This document shows, in pieces, positions 53,253 through 59,488 of a DNA stretch of 64,000 nucleotides (position 1 is the first letter of the stretch; the number at the start of each line of letters is the position of its first letter). The translations under genes and the position numbers were made by a program. The notes under the pieces were generated by a model, which searched no databases, was not told where the DNA came from, and was given only the letters and a program-made list of their open reading frames with translations. Origin of the DNA: Candidatus Latescibacterota bacterium (lineage in GTDB: Bacteria; Latescibacterota; UBA2968; GCA-2709665); the NCBI GenBank assembly GCA_963667175.2, contig CAXXXF010000002.1, positions 302,195-366,194 of the forward strand, read 5' to 3'.

Positions 53253-54659
53253 ATGAAAGCGCAAATCGTCGTTGCCGACGACCAGCCCGAAATCCTGGAG
53301 ATGCTGAGGCGAAGCCTTCAGGTGGATGGCCGGACCGTGAGGACTTTTCCAACGGGCAGAAAGGCGTTTGCATACCTGCGAGAGCACGTTTCGGACGTGG
53401 ATATGGCCGTTCTGGATATCGACTTCGGTCCCACCGAGCCGGACGGTCTGGAAATTCTGAGAAAGATTCGCGACCTCGTGCCGGATTTGCCGGTGATCAT
53501 TCTCACGGGGAAAGGCACCGTGGAGAACGCCGTGGCTGCCCTGCGCATGGGCGCTTCCGACTTTATCGAGAAGGATACCTATATTGAAGACCGGCTTGAA
53601 CTCAGCCTTGAAAAACTCGACCGCGTTCTCGCCGTCCTCAGGGAGAACGCCCGGCTTCAGGCGCGGGTGAAGGATCTGGACCGGGAGAACCGCTACTACC
53701 GGGACGAATTCGGAAAGAAGTACAGGACCGTCAATGCCAGCCCCCAGATGCTGCGGATCATGCGGCAGGCCGAGCGCATTGCTTCGATACCACGGCCGGT
53801 TCTGGTACTCGGCGAACCCGGCACCGGGAAGGAGCTTGTGGCCGCCGCGATTCACTACGGCGGCGTACGCGGCAATCGACCGTTCGTTAAGGTCAATTGC
53901 GCGGCCCTTTCCGCCAACCTGCTGGAAAGCGAACTCTTCGGCCACGAGAAAGGCGCGTTCACCGGAGCGACCGAAGCCCGACCAGGACGGTTTGAAGCGG
54001 CCAACGGCGGTACGCTGTTGCTGGACGAGATCGGCAACACCACACCCGAATTCCAGCAGAACGTCCTTCGCGCCATCGAGTACCAGGAGATTCAACGGGT
54101 GGGCGGGGCCGCGCCCACCAGCGTGGACGTCCGGATCATCGCCGCCACGAATGCCGATCTCGAACGTGAGATTGCCGAAGGCCGCTTTCGCCGGGATCTC
54201 TACGACCGCCTCCGCTTCGAAGTGATCCGCATTCCCCCGCTTCGCGAACGGCGTGAAGACGTCCAGCCGCTTGCCGCGTTCTTCGTCGAGCAAATCGTCC
54301 GGGAGGTGCCGGGACTCACCTTGCGTCCGTTTTCCGACGGCGCCCTCCGACACCTGCAGGGCTACCCGTGGCCCGGAAACGTGCGCGAGCTCAAGTTCGC
54401 CGTCGAACGCGCGGCGATCATGGCCACGGGCGCATCCATCGAATCCCAGGATTTGCCGCCGGAAATCACCAGCGGAGATCCGGCGCCGCCGGGAGACGGG
54501 TTCGACGCTCAGGTCAAAGCCTTTGAGCTCGGGCTGCTCAGAACCGCACTGGGCAACGCGAACTGGAACCAGCGCAAGGCAGCCGAATCGCTCAGTCTGA
54601 GCTACGACCAGTTCCGCCACTTCTACAGGAAGTATGAACTTGCCAATGAAAGAACCTGA
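53253..54659 (+). CDS. Sigma54-dependent activator: receiver domain plus PspF-like AAA+ and HTH
   Basis: REC (ADD, VLD, LTG, EK), GEPGTGKE and GAFTGA; PspF-like [19 protein letters not shown] and [18 protein letters not shown]. Confidence 0.9.
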
Positions 54660-54761
54660 CGTTCGTTATTGTCATAAGGAGCCCCTGGCGCGGCTTCGCT
54701 GTGCTCAGCCGCAACGAAAAAAGGTGGAGGTGAACGTCTGAGCCCGTTGGACGGCGCAATC

Positions 54762-54820
54762 ACTCCCCCCTTGAGGGGGAGTCGCCTGCCTGCGCCAAGC
54801 GGAGCGCGGCAGGCAGGCAG
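54762..54820. repeat. REP-like palindromic elements
   Basis: ACTCCCCCCTTGAGGGGGAGT and CCTGCCTGC...GCAGGCAGG inverted repeats; the latter resembles the core of the MITE. Confidence 0.55.
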
Positions 54821-54966
54821 AAGCCGAGCCGTCAGGCGACGGCTTATGCGGTGGGGGGATTCCAACGCGTGAACGTGAGCAAGAAGCACGAATAAATATG
54901 CACGCATTTTGCGAAGAAGCCTTACCGGAAGATGCTAAGGGAGGGCATGGATTTGACTATTTTCAC

Positions 54967-54994
54967 TTGACGCAGATCATGAATCCGGTATATT
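54967..54994 (+). promoter_or_regulatory. Putative sigma70 promoter
   Basis: TTGACG-N16-TATATT upstream of the 55146 gene. Confidence 0.4.
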
Positions 54995-55145
54995 TGGATC
55001 GAACCTCGCGCTTTGATGCTTATTGCATCTATTCCGGTCCCGGATCTTCTCCGGGAATCCTGCGGGTTCACAATCGGAACGGGACAACACCGCCCGGCTC
55101 GATTGCTCTTCAAGGAAACGGTTTGCCGCTTACGAGGAAACAACA

Positions 55146-56936
55146 ATGAGCGAAGCCGAAAACGGCCCTTGCGGCCTGATTTTCCCCTCAGACGATTCGG
55201 AAGTTTCCCACGTAGAACTGTGCCTTGCGGACGCTGGTTTTTCCAGTGAAGTTCGGGCATGGCTGGTTCAGATATTTGAACGCCAGGACTGTTTTGGCGA
55301 TTCCGGCGGCGCGTCCGTGTTCAGGGACGATTTCGCGCACCTTTTCGAGCACGTCCTTCCCGGTGTCGTGGAAGGGCTGAACGAACCGGATCCATCGGAG
55401 CACCTCGCACAGACCCGCCTCGCGCTCCTCTTCAGTTTTCTGCTTGGCTTCGGACCCGTCTACAGCGAAGGGGTTCGGCCTGGCCGTGGGCTGGTGAAAT
55501 CAGGTGAAGACTGGGTTGTTCCCGCGTGGGTTGGCGCGTTTCAAAGGCAGGCGAAATTTCGAGCACAACGCCTGGATTGGCGCAAGCTCGTGGAGATAAG
55601 AAACGCGCGCGCTTTCCTGTTCTTCGACCTCGTTCCATTTCTCTTTCCCGAAGGCCTGCCGCTGGATCAGATCGTCAATCCGGCCTTGTTGAATCCGATA
55701 CCGCGAGAGGAGTGGTCCAGTACGGATTTTGAAGACCCCGATCAGCTCGAATTCTGGCTCAAATGGCGTTTCGCCGCAGACTCGGAACGTCGTGAGATCA
55801 TAAACCTGAACACCCTGGAAGCGGCGTTTTCCGATTTTGCGGAGGATGTTCTGGGCGACCGGATTCTCGGACTCCTGAATGCGATCGAATGTGCGATGAG
55901 CATTGGATTTGCGTCGGCTTCGGAACGTCTGAATCCTTCGGGTGACGGGTGGCGGGTGGTTTCGCGTGAACTAATCCCGTACCTGGACCTTCTGAGTGAG
56001 AAACGGCCCGAGTCCGGGTCAGAGCGATCTTCGTTGCTCAAAGCCTGGTGGCGGTTGTCGGCGGCGATTTACTACAGGGGTATGGGTGGGCTGGAACCGG
56101 ATCTCTCCGACGAACTGAGAAACCGGCTTGTGGACAGCGCCGCCAGGCACGTCGGCATGCTGCGGAAGGTGTTGCGAGAGACGCCTGAGGAATTTACGGG
56201 AAGGGATTCGACGGGCGCGCCGGTTGCGGATTTCTACGAAAGAGCCTTTGAGGCGCTGATCGTTTTCGCCGCGCCCTGGAAATGCTTGAGGTCCCTCCTG
56301 CTGGCTTTCGCGGAGATGCGGGTTCCCGCCGTTGCATCGGACCTTCGGCCGTGGCCCGATGCTGACAGAGAACCTCCGCCGCATCCCTACAGTCGAATCC
56401 CGACGTGGATCGGAATCGCCATGTATCCGCAGCATCTTCGGGATGAACTCAGACGGGACCCGCACTTGAAGGGATTGCGTGAAGCATTTGCCAAATTCTG
56501 CCTCGAACGGCTCAAGACCCGGAGAACCGATGCTGAGCCGACCAGACAAACGGACCATCCCGCGGACGAACGATTCGTCGAACCCCGCCGAGCGTGGAGA
56601 CAGTGCTACGTGCAGGCGCTGGCGGCATTGCGAGTCAATCCCGGCGGGCGGGCGCACAGAACGCTGTTCTGGCTTTCCAGGAACGATCCTGATGAAACGA
56701 TCCGAACACTCGCGAGAAGGGCGCACGGCCGGATTCGTCATCTCAGTCCCGACAGGCCAAATCGGAATCGGGGCGCCTCGCCTCGTCGAGCCCTGTTCGA
56801 AGCCTTCTGGTGGCTCCGCCAGGCGCATCTCCTGACACTTGGAATAGAGATCGACCAGGCGGGCGCCATGCGAACGCGAAGAACGGAATTGCATCGGACA
56901 CGAGAGAAGCGTGATCGCCTCGATGGGCAGGCGTAG
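55146..56936 (+). CDS. Large hypothetical alpha-helical protein upstream of the viperin unit
   Basis: GAGGA RBS before ATG 55146; 596 codons; HEAT-like C-terminal segment (LSRNDPDETIRTLA); no catalytic motif recognised. Confidence 0.75.
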   Translation: MSEAENGPCGLIFPSDDSEVSHVELCLADAGFSSEVRAWLVQIFERQDCFGDSGGASVFRDDFAHLFEHVLPGVVEGLNEPDPSEHLAQTRLALLFSFLLGFGPVYSEGVRPGRGLVKSGEDWVVPAWVGAFQRQAKFRAQRLDWRKLVEIRNARAFLFFDLVPFLFPEGLPLDQIVNPALLNPIPREEWSSTDFEDPDQLEFWLKWRFAADSERREIINLNTLEAAFSDFAEDVLGDRILGLLNAIECAMSIGFASASERLNPSGDGWRVVSRELIPYLDLLSEKRPESGSERSSLLKAWWRLSAAIYYRGMGGLEPDLSDELRNRLVDSAARHVGMLRKVLRETPEEFTGRDSTGAPVADFYERAFEALIVFAAPWKCLRSLLLAFAEMRVPAVASDLRPWPDADREPPPHPYSRIPTWIGIAMYPQHLRDELRRDPHLKGLREAFAKFCLERLKTRRTDAEPTRQTDHPADERFVEPRRAWRQCYVQALAALRVNPGGRAHRTLFWLSRNDPDETIRTLARRAHGRIRHLSPDRPNRNRGASPRRALFEAFWWLRQAHLLTLGIEIDQAGAMRTRRTELHRTREKRDRLDGQA

Positions 56937-57066
56937 TTGACCAACGACAACACTTTAGATGGCAAATTACACCAAGTACAAGGAAGTGGCCGGTGTATTC
57001 ATTTCCATAAGATAATTATTATAAATGACTTAATTGAAATACAGAAGTATTGGCATAATTCTTGCA
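56930..57066 (+). promoter_or_regulatory. Sigma54 promoter with PspF-type upstream sites and an IHF-like site, in front of the small gene/viperin
   Basis: TTGGCATAATTCTTGCA (GG 57052-53, N10, GC 57064-65); GGCGTAGTTGACCAA (56930) and GGCAAATTACACCAA (56961); TATAAATGACTTA (57020) is one mismatch from the IHF consensus. Confidence 0.72.
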
Positions 57067-57172
57067 TTTAATGGATGGAGATTCCGTAGAGTAACCCGGT
57101 CTGCTCATCAATTGGGAACCAAAGTGTCCCCCAGGGCCGGCCCGATTCCACGAGAAAGGAGGTGAAAAGAAA

Positions 57173-57355
57173 ATGGCCAAATCAAGCGGGAATAGAGGCT
57201 CGCAAGCCGATCGTGACAATCGCGCCAATCAGCTGAATCCCAACAACGATGCATATCGGAAGGCGCGCGGCATTGCGAACTTGCCCAGCAAGACCGGAAA
57301 TCCTTCCGGCCGCGGCCGCGGCAATGCCGCGCCCAGGGGAGGTAAGGGCAAATGA
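57173..57355 (+). CDS. 60-aa basic Gly/Asn-rich protein with a DNRANQLNPNNDAY motif
   Basis: Very strong RBS (GAAAGGAGGTGA); MAKSSGNRGSQADRDNRANQLNPNNDAYRKARG...RGGKGK. Confidence 0.75.
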   Translation: MAKSSGNRGSQADRDNRANQLNPNNDAYRKARGIANLPSKTGNPSGRGRGNAAPRGGKGK

Positions 57356-57361
57356 TGTATC

Positions 57362-57430
57362 GGCGCAGGGGCTGGCCATTGCCCGGCACGGACGTTTGCA
57401 ATCGGTCAATCCCTGCCCGCCTTTTCGTTT
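57362..57430 (+). terminator. Long hairpin with U-tract between the small gene and viperin
   Basis: GCAGGG..TGGCCATTGC pairs with GCAAT(C)GGTCA..CCCTGC, followed by TTTTCGTTT. Confidence 0.5.
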
Positions 57431-57564
57431 CGCCAGATGCGTCGCACTTCGAGGCTCAATAGCCTCGCGCCTGATCCCCACCGGATTGTGCTACGACGCA
57501 TCCTTTCAGGACAACCGGAACGGCAACATCGTTCCTTTAATGTCAAATGAGAAAGGAGTTTAAA

Positions 57565-58461
57565 ATGGCCTTCGGCAATTTGCCATCTCCCTTGCAGCAG
57601 AAAATCCCATCAGTCAACTTCCATCTCTGGGAACCATGCAACATGCGTTGCAGGTTCTGTTTTGCTACGTTTCAAGACGTAAAGCGTGATATGAACCTGC
57701 CAAAAGGTCATCTGCCCAAGGATGATTGTATCGTAGTTGTAGAGAAACTTGCCGAAGCGGGCTTTGATAAGATTAATTTCGCCGGTGGAGAACCCACACT
57801 TTGCCCATGGTTGTCTGATTTAATCAGGCGGGCGAAATCTCACGGAATGGTCACTTCCGTCGTTACAAACGGATCGAGGATTACCGATCAGTGGCTGGGC
57901 AGTCTGTATAGGTGTCTTGATTGGATCGCCCTGAGCATTGACACCGTTGACTCGGGTAAATTGAAACGACTGGGGCGTGCAATCGGCGGCAAAGATGCCA
58001 TTTCCCCGGAAGAGTATCTTCGCATTGCCAGCGACGTAAAGCGACGCGGGATTCGGCTGAAAGTCAATACTGTCGTTACTTCCATTACGTGGCTGGACGA
58101 TTTTGCCGACTTTATACGGCTGTTAAAACCCGAACGCTGGAAGATATTTCAGGCACTTCCCGTCAAGGGCCAAAACGACCGGCATATTGCTGATTTCGCG
58201 CTTACAGCAAAGCAATTTGACGCGTACGTTCAACGCAATCGCATCGTCAGGGAGGAGAGCATCCGCGTCGTCCCCGAGAGCAATGAACTGATGACTGAGA
58301 GTTACACAATGGTTGATCCTGCGGGACGATTTTTCGACAACGCAAAGGGCGCCCATTCCTACAGTGACCCCATCCTGGAGGTTGGGATTGACGCGGCCTT
58401 GAAGTCCGTGTCGATCGACCCTGATCGGTTTCTTCGGAGGGGAGGAAAGTATGACTGGTAA
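57565..58461 (+). CDS. Prokaryotic viperin (antiviral radical SAM ddhNTP synthase, pVip)
   Basis: SVNFHLWEPCNMRCRFCFATF (N-Phi-H-X4-CX3CX2CF), KINFAGGEP, VTNGS, WIALSID, KVNTVV, PERWKIFQ..GQND and PESNELMTESYTMVDPAGRF; AAGGAG RBS before ATG 57565. Confidence 0.93.
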   Translation: MAFGNLPSPLQQKIPSVNFHLWEPCNMRCRFCFATFQDVKRDMNLPKGHLPKDDCIVVVEKLAEAGFDKINFAGGEPTLCPWLSDLIRRAKSHGMVTSVVTNGSRITDQWLGSLYRCLDWIALSIDTVDSGKLKRLGRAIGGKDAISPEEYLRIASDVKRRGIRLKVNTVVTSITWLDDFADFIRLLKPERWKIFQALPVKGQNDRHIADFALTAKQFDAYVQRNRIVREESIRVVPESNELMTESYTMVDPAGRFFDNAKGAHSYSDPILEVGIDAALKSVSIDPDRFLRRGGKYDW

Positions 58462-59044
58462 ATTCATCGTCATCTAAAGCCCTGATGCAGTCGGCAAATC
58501 TACCCTAGCGCGCGAATTGGCCAATCGGCTTGGCGCGGAGCTGCTCGAATGCCCTCCACGGTTGGAGGCCCCCGGGTTATTGGGGGCGGAGCTGCGGAGT
58601 CATTTCGACAAACGACCTGCCGAACAGCGGCGCGCTTACTACCGGGCGGCGAATCTCGTCGCTAGTGAAATTGCCGAAGGTACACTGCAGGAGAAGCATG
58701 TCGTGATGGACCGTTATTGGCCGAGTACGGTTGCTTTCGCCACAATGGACGTTGACTCAAACGGTTACCGGAAATGGCAGGGTCTTTATCCGCCGGAACT
58801 CCGCAAGCCGGATGCAGTTGTCCTGCTTACGGTAGATGAGGAGAATCGTTCGAAGAGGATGCGGAAGCGCGGTGAACCTGCCACGACCGAGGAGCAGTCC
58901 CTCGACGAACACCTTGCACACCGCAATAACATACTTTGCGCGTACCGCAAATTCAACCCGATCGAGATCGATACGAGCAATCGCAAGCCTGGTGACGTCC
59001 GTGAAGCTACCCTCGATGAACTTCGCAGTGCAAGGTTGTTTTAA
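58451..59044 (+). pseudogene. CMPK2-like/thymidylate-kinase-family nucleotide kinase with an in-frame TAA at codon 9
   Basis: From ATG 58451 it reads MTGKFIVI*SPDAVGKSTLARELANR, in frame with ORF 58517-59044 (RRAYYRAAN, VVMDRYWPST, ELRKPDAVVLLTV..ENRSKRMRKRG). Confidence 0.8.
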
Positions 59045-59060
59045 CTGAACTCCCATCTCC

Positions 59061-59091
59061 AACGCCCCCGGCGATGTTCGCCGGGGGCGTT
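59061..59091. terminator. Perfect GC-rich hairpin after the kinase
   Basis: AACGCCCCCGGCGA-tgt-TCGCCGGGGGCGTT. Confidence 0.6.
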
Positions 59092-59140
59092 GGTCGGGCG
59101 GGGTTCACCAGCATCTCCCAATCGCTACCGCATAATCTTC

Positions 59141-59220
59141 GTAGGGGCAACCCTTGTGGTTGCCCTGGTTAATGCGTACGCCCACGGACGCCGATGCGGG
59201 CGGGACGCCCGCGCTCCCAG
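59141..59220. repeat. REP-like elements (GTAG-type and GCGGGCGGGACGCCCGC-type)
   Basis: GTAGGGGCAACCCTTGTGGTTGCCCT and GCGGGCGGGACGCCCGCGCTCCCAG palindromes. Confidence 0.6.
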
Positions 59221-59488
59221 GGGAGCGACGCGGCGAATGGCCGGTGGCTGGAAGGAAAGCGTCAATAAACGACGGCGAGACGCCCTGACGACGTTTGTCG
59301 GGGCGTTCGTTTTTTTTGATTCGAAGAATCCACAAACAAGATGGTTTCGGCAGTACGGGTATTGCGTTATATTGTGGTCGTCTGAATTCAACGAAGAAAC
59401 CAGGCTGCGATTCGTTTTCCACCTGGATCTGATAAAGGCATCGAAGACCGCGTGCAGCGCGTGGTCGGGCGAGCGGTATGGACCAGAT

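Follow-up and report, generated by a model that had tools for sequence, protein, structure and literature searches.

The subject of this study is a four-gene locus in a 64,000-nt stretch of a Candidatus Latescibacterota bacterium genome (contig CAXXXF010000002.1, positions 302,195 to 366,194; here referred to as the window), in which a prokaryotic viperin (pVip) gene lies behind genes for a large HEAT/ARM-like protein and a mini-protein and behind a Y-shaped leader RNA. Comparison of homologous loci showed that the pVip gene is part of a modular cassette consisting of a promoter and 5′ untranslated region (UTR), the HEAT/ARM-like protein, one or two small basic proteins, the Y-shaped RNA (Y-RNA), and an enzyme gene that can be exchanged. 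Across the loci compared, the large protein and the RNA move together with an enzyme gene, and which enzyme this is changes between otherwise syntenic genomes. We propose, with a probability of roughly 45%, that this is a modular system in which control lies with the large protein and the RNA and the enzyme is the effector.

A modular cassette with an exchangeable enzyme gene

The genome-contig set comprised 42 loci, labelled Latescibacterota, Poribacteria, and, in one case, a Myxococcota metagenome-assembled genome (MAG). At 41 of these 42 loci, the next same-strand gene after the large protein encodes one of four enzyme types: a pVip (15 loci, by tblastn), a β-CASP metallo-β-lactamase nuclease with Beta-Casp and RMMBL domains (16 loci), a B12-binding radical S-adenosylmethionine (SAM) enzyme matching PADLOC PDC-M51A at 7e-93 (9 loci), or a GT2 glycosyltransferase identified by Pfam (1 locus). 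The remaining locus has no next gene; its contig ends 469 nt after the large gene. Tandem cargo, with a second gene or a fragment of one, occurs at seven genome loci, and three of them (L040, L041, and L049) have the order pVip, kinase, β-CASP. At L044 (11098-13926), tblastn recovered the second cargo gene, a β-CASP, in two pieces separated by about 1.2 kb, suggesting that it contains an insertion. The metagenome set contained 52 loci found with an alignment of distant members (26 to 55% identity). One of the same four enzyme types was present at 36 of the 52 (pVip at 18, β-CASP at 7, B12 radical SAM at 8, and GT2 at 3), 10 had too little downstream sequence, and 6 had something else or nothing next; several metagenome contigs are near-duplicates, so these counts overstate independence.

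We also considered 61 related genomes. The large protein was present in 11 of them, and matches to R1, a covariance model of the leader RNA, were found in exactly the same 11. A pVip above the family cut-off was present in five of the 61 genomes, and all five adjoin the large protein, indicating that the upstream genes are functionally linked to pVip and are not chance neighbours. A preliminary description of this locus had taken the two upstream genes to be accessories of a viperin system. The linkage that it assumed is borne out, and a check of the neighbourhoods of large-protein homologues did place pVip next at 15 of the 42 genome loci, but the upstream genes are shared with three enzyme types that are not viperins. 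Because the same large protein, mini-protein, and RNA precede β-CASP, B12 radical-SAM, and GT2 genes as often, the upstream genes are not viperin accessories. The pVip is one of several interchangeable cargo genes.

The exchange is seen in a comparison with two loci of the same genus, L028 and L014, whose large proteins are 85% and 73% identical to that of the window. Both have the window's flanks but carry a β-CASP gene in place of the pVip and kinase genes. When the window was compared with L028 by blastn, homology extended over 54000-57271 and 57289-57568, ending at the enzyme ATG, and resumed at 59066, 22 nt past the kinase stop. The gene on the upstream side of the large gene is not the same in every lineage (it may be a sigma-54 regulator, a GDP-mannose-dehydratase-like gene, or an NADH dehydrogenase subunit gene), which indicates that the module moves as a unit. 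The features of the window locus are listed in Table 1.

Table 1. Coordinates of the cassette and its flanking elements in the window
Feature	Position	Strand	Basis or remark
REP-like dispersed repeat	54735-54860	.	Upstream of module; 56 matches in own genome
Sigma-70-like promoter candidate, TTGACG-16-TATATT	54967-54994	+	Pattern scan, 10/12 positions match
Conserved 5′ UTR of large gene, two small hairpins	54976-55145	+	nhmmer, RNAalifold
Large protein, 596 aa, HEAT/ARM-like alpha-solenoid (predicted)	55146-56936	+	Predicted structure, homologue family
Mini-protein, 60 aa, isoelectric point (pI) 11.8	57173-57355	+	NQLNPNN-type N-terminus fused in frame to G/R-rich PSKTGNPSG.GR.NAP-type C-terminus
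Y-shaped leader RNA, ~88 nt	57434-57521	+	P1 and P1b enclose hairpins P2 and P3; then conserved UCCUUUCA
Small hairpin plus UUUAAU	57517-57535	+	Between leader core and Shine-Dalgarno; terminator-like; in many, not all leaders
Prokaryotic viperin (pVip), 298 aa, intact	57565-58461	+	NF038283, PADLOC pVip models
Thymidylate-kinase-like gene, broken by in-frame TAA 58475-58477 in P-loop	58451-59044	+	PF02223
GC-rich hairpin after cassette	59049-59107	+	blastn vs L028 and L014; single-copy
Stretch with short REP-like palindromic repeats	59113-59275	.	36 short matches in own genome
Intrinsic-terminator-like hairpin plus T run	59279-59317	+	13-pair stem, then CGTTTTTTTT

The leader RNA and the proteins encoded ahead of it

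"Conserved peptides" in odd frames of the spacer pointed to a conserved nucleotide element, the leader RNA. Across 28 leader sequences, 94.1% of cells in the proposed stems are paired, compared with 27 to 43% when the 3′ partners are slid. Changes on both sides occur in 10 of the 24 pairs, and none of 500 shuffles matched the covariation score; related sequences may beat shuffles without any structure, and the slid control is therefore the stronger one. The covariance model R1 scored 90.5 bits on the window leader, which is single copy in its own genome, and it matched 36 of the 42 genome loci and, in addition, the window and L014; all of these matches are on the plus strand. Of 42 matches examined, 41 are followed after 21 to 61 nt by the start codon of an enzyme gene that has a Shine-Dalgarno sequence. 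At the tandem loci L040, L041, L044, and L049, the second enzyme gene has an R1 copy of its own. None of the 4227 Rfam families was detected at the leader in the window (E ≤ 1), in nine Poribacteria loci (at the gathering score), or in six distant loci (E ≤ 1).

Distant loci have a Y-shaped element that is shorter and begins no more than a few dozen bases from the stop codon of the large gene; its parts are, in order, P1, UUG, P2, a junction, P3, and the strand that closes P1. A descriptor score of at least 35 was reached by 15 of 33 real distant regions, compared with 17 of 330 dinucleotide shuffles and 2 of 30 coding controls. In eight distant regions that could be aligned cleanly, pairing was 88.7%, with compensatory change in 11 of 17 pairs and a score that 0 of 500 shuffles matched, figures that are favoured by the derivation of the fold from the same sequences. 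A MAFFT alignment of 20 distant RNAs was structurally inconsistent, and no pairs were counted on it. R2, a second model with eight distant seeds, recovered its seeds and one further locus (L101, E 0.004), with weak matches at the expected places in L110, L069, and L083. Three Poribacteria loci, L040 (958-1062), L041 (766-870), and L045 (1089-1193), have thiamine pyrophosphate (TPP) riboswitches some 6 kb ahead of the module; these are probably unrelated to it.

These features could be those of a small-molecule riboswitch that responds to a nucleotide or an infection-linked metabolite and switches the enzyme gene unaided, in which case the large protein would have some other role. The 5′ UTR fold is compact and resembles a three-way junction in which the stems covary and the junction bases are conserved. 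Each cargo gene is preceded by an RNA copy of its own, and the conserved pyrimidine tract after P1 is complementary to the Shine-Dalgarno sequence (its UCCUUUC pairs with every base of the Shine-Dalgarno core). We nevertheless consider a riboswitch of this kind unlikely, given that no Rfam family matches, that a test for sequestration of the Shine-Dalgarno sequence was negative, and that the four cargo enzymes have no obvious metabolite in common. The RNA was, moreover, never found without the large protein in the 61 genomes, which would be unusual, since riboswitches normally follow the genes of their ligand's pathway.

The large protein itself belongs to a sizeable family. It has more than 400 close homologues (56 to 85% identity), the named ones being Poribacteria or Gemmatimonadetes MAG proteins, and the family comprises 452 clusters at 50% identity (E ≤ 0.001). 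It matched nothing in Pfam (E ≤ 0.01, HEAT and Arm models included), PADLOC, or NCBIfam, 15 distant members had no Pfam domain at E ≤ 0.01, and tblastn gave no match in phage or plasmid collections. The AlphaFold2 (AF2) model of the whole protein, built with 30 close homologues, is an all-helical solenoid with a predicted local distance difference test (pLDDT) score of 72.5; the C-terminal domain alone (residues 390-596, 106 diverse sequences) was predicted with a pLDDT of 91.6. Foldseek with the whole model returned designed armadillo proteins and β-catenin (best E, 6e-3), and VIA-align returned generic HEAT/ARM proteins with a best Z of 11.5 (root mean square deviation [rmsd] 4.8, 252 aligned), in a range common for helical repeats. 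Fold matches of the C-terminal domain were to HEAT repeats only, with a best Z of 8.8 (rmsd 1.8, 71 aligned) that is likewise in the common helical-repeat range, and a protein atlas gave only HEAT-like leads with scores below 0.9. No catalytic fold emerged from structure searches with the predicted models. The C-terminal half is the best-conserved part of the protein. Most of the near-invariant positions fall in its last 146 residues (451-596), which include 30 Arg and have a pI of 11.6; the N-terminal half is acidic (pI 4.4 to 4.8). A prediction of the complex between the large protein and pVip scored 0.00, which gives no verdict and counts neither way. One Poribacteria locus (L060, 5285-8737) has two large-gene copies in tandem, and a protein library contains a double-length fused form (P0121, 1195 aa); such double copies are a hint that the large protein may function in dimeric form.

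Between the large gene and the RNA, loci of the sponge-symbiont clade carry three interchangeable kinds of mini-protein: a G/R-rich kind ending in ...WPSKTGNPSGGGR.NAPPKGKGK, an NQLNPNN kind, and a third with a sub-threshold SMP match, which is the only family match that any of the mini-proteins gave. The preliminary description had reported an NQLNPNN mini-protein in the window. Its open reading frame (ORF) exists and is coding, but in the window copy two mini-protein types are fused into one. In L028, the closest relative, the NQLNPNN and G/R types are encoded by two ORFs, and they are also separate in the contig of run X1, which has 234 extra nt at the fusion junction. The G/R type is clearly a real coding gene by its pattern of substitution: across 22 sequences, the entropies at the three codon positions are 0.57, 0.48, and 1.45, and the ratio of synonymous to nonsynonymous changes is 1514:1273 in frame versus 216:2462 and 122:2411 off frame. 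A profile of this type found 664 small proteins (E ≤ 0.01); family members, with one or two copies of the motif, include proteins labelled Lautropia, Acidovorax soli, and a Euryarchaeota MAG. The motif (W/A)PSKTGNPSGGGR.N.PPK occurs once or twice in the small proteins P0307, P0361, P0346, and P0381. Since distant loci have no room for a mini-protein gene, we regard it as a lineage-specific addition outside the core. Some distant loci carry a DUF4258 or other small ORF at this position; in L063, L084, and L117, a DUF4258 ORF of about 100 to 110 aa lies between the large gene and the cargo.

The large protein might instead act by binding the enzyme or the mini-protein, whether as a scaffold, an activator, an inhibitor, or a sensor of a phage protein, and the RNA might be merely a processing or stability element. 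HEAT/ARM solenoids typically bind proteins and peptides, an acidic N-terminal half would suit the basic mini-protein as a partner, and the tandem and fused double copies are in keeping with a role of this sort. It would, however, require one partner to recognise four unrelated enzyme folds, and the mini-protein comes in three interchanging types and is missing from distant loci. The RNA is also linked to the large protein as tightly as the enzymes are, and we think that action at the protein level alone is improbable.

The viperin, the kinase, and the surroundings of the locus

The third gene is a pVip, as the preliminary description had stated: it scored 307.6 bits against NF038283 (cut-off, 180), and PADLOC pVip models matched it at 3e-111, 6e-88, and 9e-80. 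The radical-SAM motif CxxxCxxC (C25, C29, and C32) and the SAM-binding G74-G75-E76 (GGEP) are invariant in an alignment of 26 sequences, as is the C-terminal RGG.Y.W motif. The best solved relative is 7n7h (2.9e-44), with which the window protein aligns end to end, through ...RGGKYDW, so that the viperin-specific C-terminal extension is present. The gene most likely starts at ATG 57565, 7 nt behind the Shine-Dalgarno sequence GAAAGGAG, and not at 57547.

The predicted substrate pocket is probably not of the CTP type. In the alignment, the Cys and Lys of 7n7h, which belong to a CTP-type pocket, correspond to Asn259 and His264 of the window protein. According to the accessible part of Shomar et al. 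(10.1101/2023.09.13.557418), Cys314 and Lys319 are the CTP-selective residues of mouse viperin, and the conserved Asn pocket of most prokaryotic viperins is described as promiscuous. We infer that the 7n7h residues are equivalent to this mouse pair; the window pVip would then have an Asn-type pocket and may accept more than one nucleoside triphosphate (NTP). The preliminary description had also thought a substrate other than CTP plausible, which fits such a pocket as far as that source describes it, but had argued from the wrong segment: NELMTESY, which it read as the substrate-selecting β-8 segment, comprises residues 240-247 and aligns to NEKMQNSY of 7n7h, and the selectivity positions lie elsewhere.

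Downstream of pVip, the remains of a kinase gene are readily recognised. Past a premature stop codon in the kinase frame, PF02223 (Thymidylate_kin) matched at 62.3 bits (6e-17; cut-off, 27), PADLOC PDC-M51B at 1e-20, and VakA at 1e-10; phmmer against Protein Data Bank (PDB) sequences gave no match at E ≤ 0.001. The frame that opens at ATG 58451 encodes MTGKFIVI (8 codons), meets TAA at 58475-58477, and continues as SPDAVGKST. All eight intact relatives read MTGKFIVIEGLDATGKST, with a P-loop of ...VIEGLDATGKST, and by this comparison the TAA replaces the P-loop Glu and the adjacent Gly is Ser in the window. The window gene thus lacks an uninterrupted frame with an intact P-loop, GxxxxGK[ST], and in this assembly it is a pseudogene. 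Two runs from other studies, X2 and X6, gave contigs (~93% identical) with G at both 58475 and 58478, reading GAA GGC. The contig of run X1 lacks 58422-58603, a deletion of 182 nt (not a multiple of three) that removes the last pVip codons and the kinase P-loop and is, on this alignment, a second, independent kinase lesion in a near-identical strain.

The kinase had been described as CMPK2-like, in a pairing with pVip that mirrors vertebrate RSAD2-CMPK2. Its likeness to thymidylate kinases stands, but the frame is broken, and a pairing of this kind is inoperative here because the P-loop carries a nonsense codon. Elsewhere, an intact kinase adjoins pVip at 8 of the 15 pVip loci; the kinase is broken in the window and at four other loci, and among Latescibacterota-labelled copies one of seven is intact, with the window counted. 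One distant locus (L092, 7010-8758) has pVip and kinase fused in a single ORF with pVip N-terminal, the opposite order to the PADLOC fusion model, whose profile the window pVip matched at 179-460. A kinase in this position would just raise the supply of substrate and would be dispensable, and its repeated decay in one lineage is natural evidence of dispensability. A dedicated four-gene viperin system, with a kinase feeding the viperin and two viperin-specific upstream genes, is therefore very unlikely: intact pairs at 8 of 15 loci agree with it, as does the presence of kinases within 3 genes of 12% of bacterial viperins (Shomar et al., 10.1101/2023.09.13.557418, accessible part), but the five broken copies and the sharing of the upstream genes with three non-viperin enzyme types do not.

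The general layout of the locus was described correctly from the outset. The ORF listing placed all four ORFs on the plus strand (55146-56936, 57173-57355, 57547/57565-58461, and 58451-59044), and the kinase ATG at 58451 overlaps the end of pVip (stop codon, 58459-58461) by 11 nt. GC content is below the window mean of 0.612 throughout, though just slightly in the large gene (0.594; spacer between large gene and mini-protein gene, 0.411; pVip, 0.508; kinase, 0.559). REP-like elements do bound the locus, at 54735-54860 and within 59113-59275, and the flanking genes are a sigma-54 response regulator (53253-54659) on one side and a DUF4926 gene on the other. A TTGACA-like box is kept in an alignment of 27 regions upstream of the large gene; the promoter pattern scan as a whole was at shuffle level (2 found, 2.1 expected). 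The 5′ UTR of the large gene (~170 nt) shows nucleotide-level conservation among loci of Latescibacterota and Poribacteria (36 nhmmer hits), and its RNAalifold structure has 9 pairs, with compensatory changes in 8.

Several smaller observations concern the same region. The first hairpin of this UTR (GAUGCA..UGCAUC, then UCUUCC) is similar to P1 and the pyrimidine tract of the cargo leader. Two loci with B12 radical-SAM cargo (L031, 10800-12981, and L035, 6040-8140) have, after the cargo, a second copy of the large gene's 5′ UTR, followed by a C-terminal large-gene fragment (residues ~523-588) and a 496-aa ORF with no Pfam match. L028 and L014 carry a DUF6883 gene between the cassette and the DUF4926 gene that is not in the window (59274-59484 versus L028 11370-11995); the two genes have the look of a small pair, and the window has kept just DUF4926. 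The hairpin after the cassette (59045-59112) occurs once in its own genome, and an Rfam match to Pab91 at 59049-59107 was taken as chance, with 28.7 bits versus a gathering score of 71. An integron-like cassette array was considered and set aside, as no integrase adjoins the module and the repeated element precedes, and does not follow, each cargo gene.

Finally, it is very improbable that there is no system at all and that the large gene marks an insertion hotspot or the module serves RNA or nucleotide housekeeping: cargo does vary at one site between congeneric genomes, among housekeeping flanks that vary by lineage and with REP-like repeats on both sides, but just four cargo types recur, always close by and on the same strand, across 26 to 85% large-protein identity and varied chromosomal contexts, the same RNA lies ahead of each cargo gene, and the module is patchy (11 of 61 genomes) and moves as a unit.

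A candidate control system and its relation to known systems

In the proposed system, the large protein, with its Arg-rich C-terminal HEAT domain, and the RNA before each enzyme gene would constitute the control part. Acting as a sensor or as a translational switch, this part would hold back an enzyme that is potentially harmful to its own cell and would release it upon a trigger, of which phage infection is the most plausible. Once released, the pVip of the window would make chain terminators of the 3′-deoxy-3′,4′-didehydro-NTP (ddhNTP) type, perhaps from several NTPs given its Asn-type pocket, and the effectors of sister loci would cut RNA (β-CASP) or modify a nucleotide (B12 radical SAM or GT2). 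We favour control through binding of the RNA by the large protein because the two strictly co-occur, because every cargo gene has its own RNA copy, because the most conserved domain of the large protein is highly basic, and because four unrelated enzymes would hardly all be recognised directly by a single protein. A role in defence is suggested by the viperin itself, by the PADLOC candidate PDC-M51A among the cargo, and by the patchy distribution of the module. In its most specific form, the proposal is that a HEAT-like RNA-binding protein and a cis-acting Y-RNA make up a portable switch, new to science, that gates the translation of interchangeable antiviral enzymes in several phyla; we offer this as a tentative idea that is rather less likely to be right than wrong.

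A number of points weigh against the proposal. Binding of the Y-RNA by the large protein is something that we infer, and the steps of the mechanism are deduced from sequences and predicted structures. There is no obvious defence island around the window locus, where the neighbours are the sigma-54 response regulator, the DUF4926 gene, and an epimerase gene, and none of the PADLOC models recognised the large protein. A GT2 glycosyltransferase is not an obvious antiviral effector, and the six metagenome loci that lack all four enzyme types have enough downstream sequence to show one. The Shine-Dalgarno sequence is no more paired in the leader than elsewhere: by partition function, pairing was 0.59 versus 0.60 in 142 control genes of the same loci (Mann-Whitney p 0.54). 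Position and shape suggest one RNA family across the whole large-protein family, but R1 detected no distant locus and R2 found no leader of the sponge-symbiont clade, and because each model misses the other's set, a single family is unproven across the protein family.

We know of no account of how bacteria restrain viperins and similar nucleotide-poisoning enzymes. If such a portable switch exists, prokaryotic viperins would have their first known mechanism of control, and defence systems would gain a new family whose sensor is a ribonucleoprotein. A partner protein and an RNA shared by four enzyme types would define a new modular system and give a handle on its regulation, and they would tie the candidate PDC-M51 and an uncharacterised β-CASP nuclease to the logic of viperin. 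Two further results that lend themselves to experiment are a new structured RNA motif and a family of small proteins that is widespread. Within the literature searched, the published pVip work that we found treats pVips as stand-alone genes or as viperin-kinase pairs. The accessible part of Shomar et al. (10.1101/2023.09.13.557418) mentions no helical-repeat partner or RNA, although its supplementary neighbourhood tables could hold one. The same search returned nothing on NQLNPNN or on a Poribacteria RNA motif or riboswitch, nothing relevant on pVip with riboswitch or viperin with Poribacteria, and no paper naming PDC-M51.

The window gene resembles known prokaryotic viperins (NF038283; PADLOC/DefenseFinder "viperin") in its family model and in its radical-SAM and C-terminal motifs, as well as in having Asn at the position tied to promiscuous ddhNTP synthesis in the accessible part of Shomar et al. 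(10.1101/2023.09.13.557418). Known systems, however, are described as single genes, at times with a kinase, whereas the window pVip is swappable cargo that sits behind a HEAT-like protein, a mini-protein, and a structured leader RNA. Like the known viperin-kinase pairs (RSAD2-CMPK2; PADLOC VakA and the pVip-kinase fusion), the window has a gene of the thymidylate-kinase fold overlapping the end of pVip, but this kinase differs by the nonsense codon in its P-loop and has its best PADLOC match in PDC-M51B, not VakA. PADLOC PDC-M51 itself consists of a B12-binding radical-SAM component (A) and a kinase (B). The sister-locus cargo resembles A and the window kinase resembles B, at the E values given above; as modelled, PDC-M51 has neither a HEAT-like partner nor an RNA, and the two components are not found together here, the window holding the B-like pseudogene alone and the A-like gene being in sister loci.

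With riboswitches and protein-binding mRNA leaders, the window RNA shares a covarying three-stem 5′ UTR element just before the Shine-Dalgarno sequence. Unlike riboswitches, it falls outside all of the Rfam families searched and is coupled strictly to one protein family and not to a metabolic pathway. CBASS, Avs, and Lamassu are modular defence systems that combine a conserved sensor with exchangeable effectors. As these systems are generally described, the cassette resembles them in having one conserved component and several unrelated enzymatic effectors, in its patchy spread, and in cassette exchange; it differs from them in that its conserved part has no NTPase, cyclase, or known signalling domain and in that a cis RNA precedes every effector.

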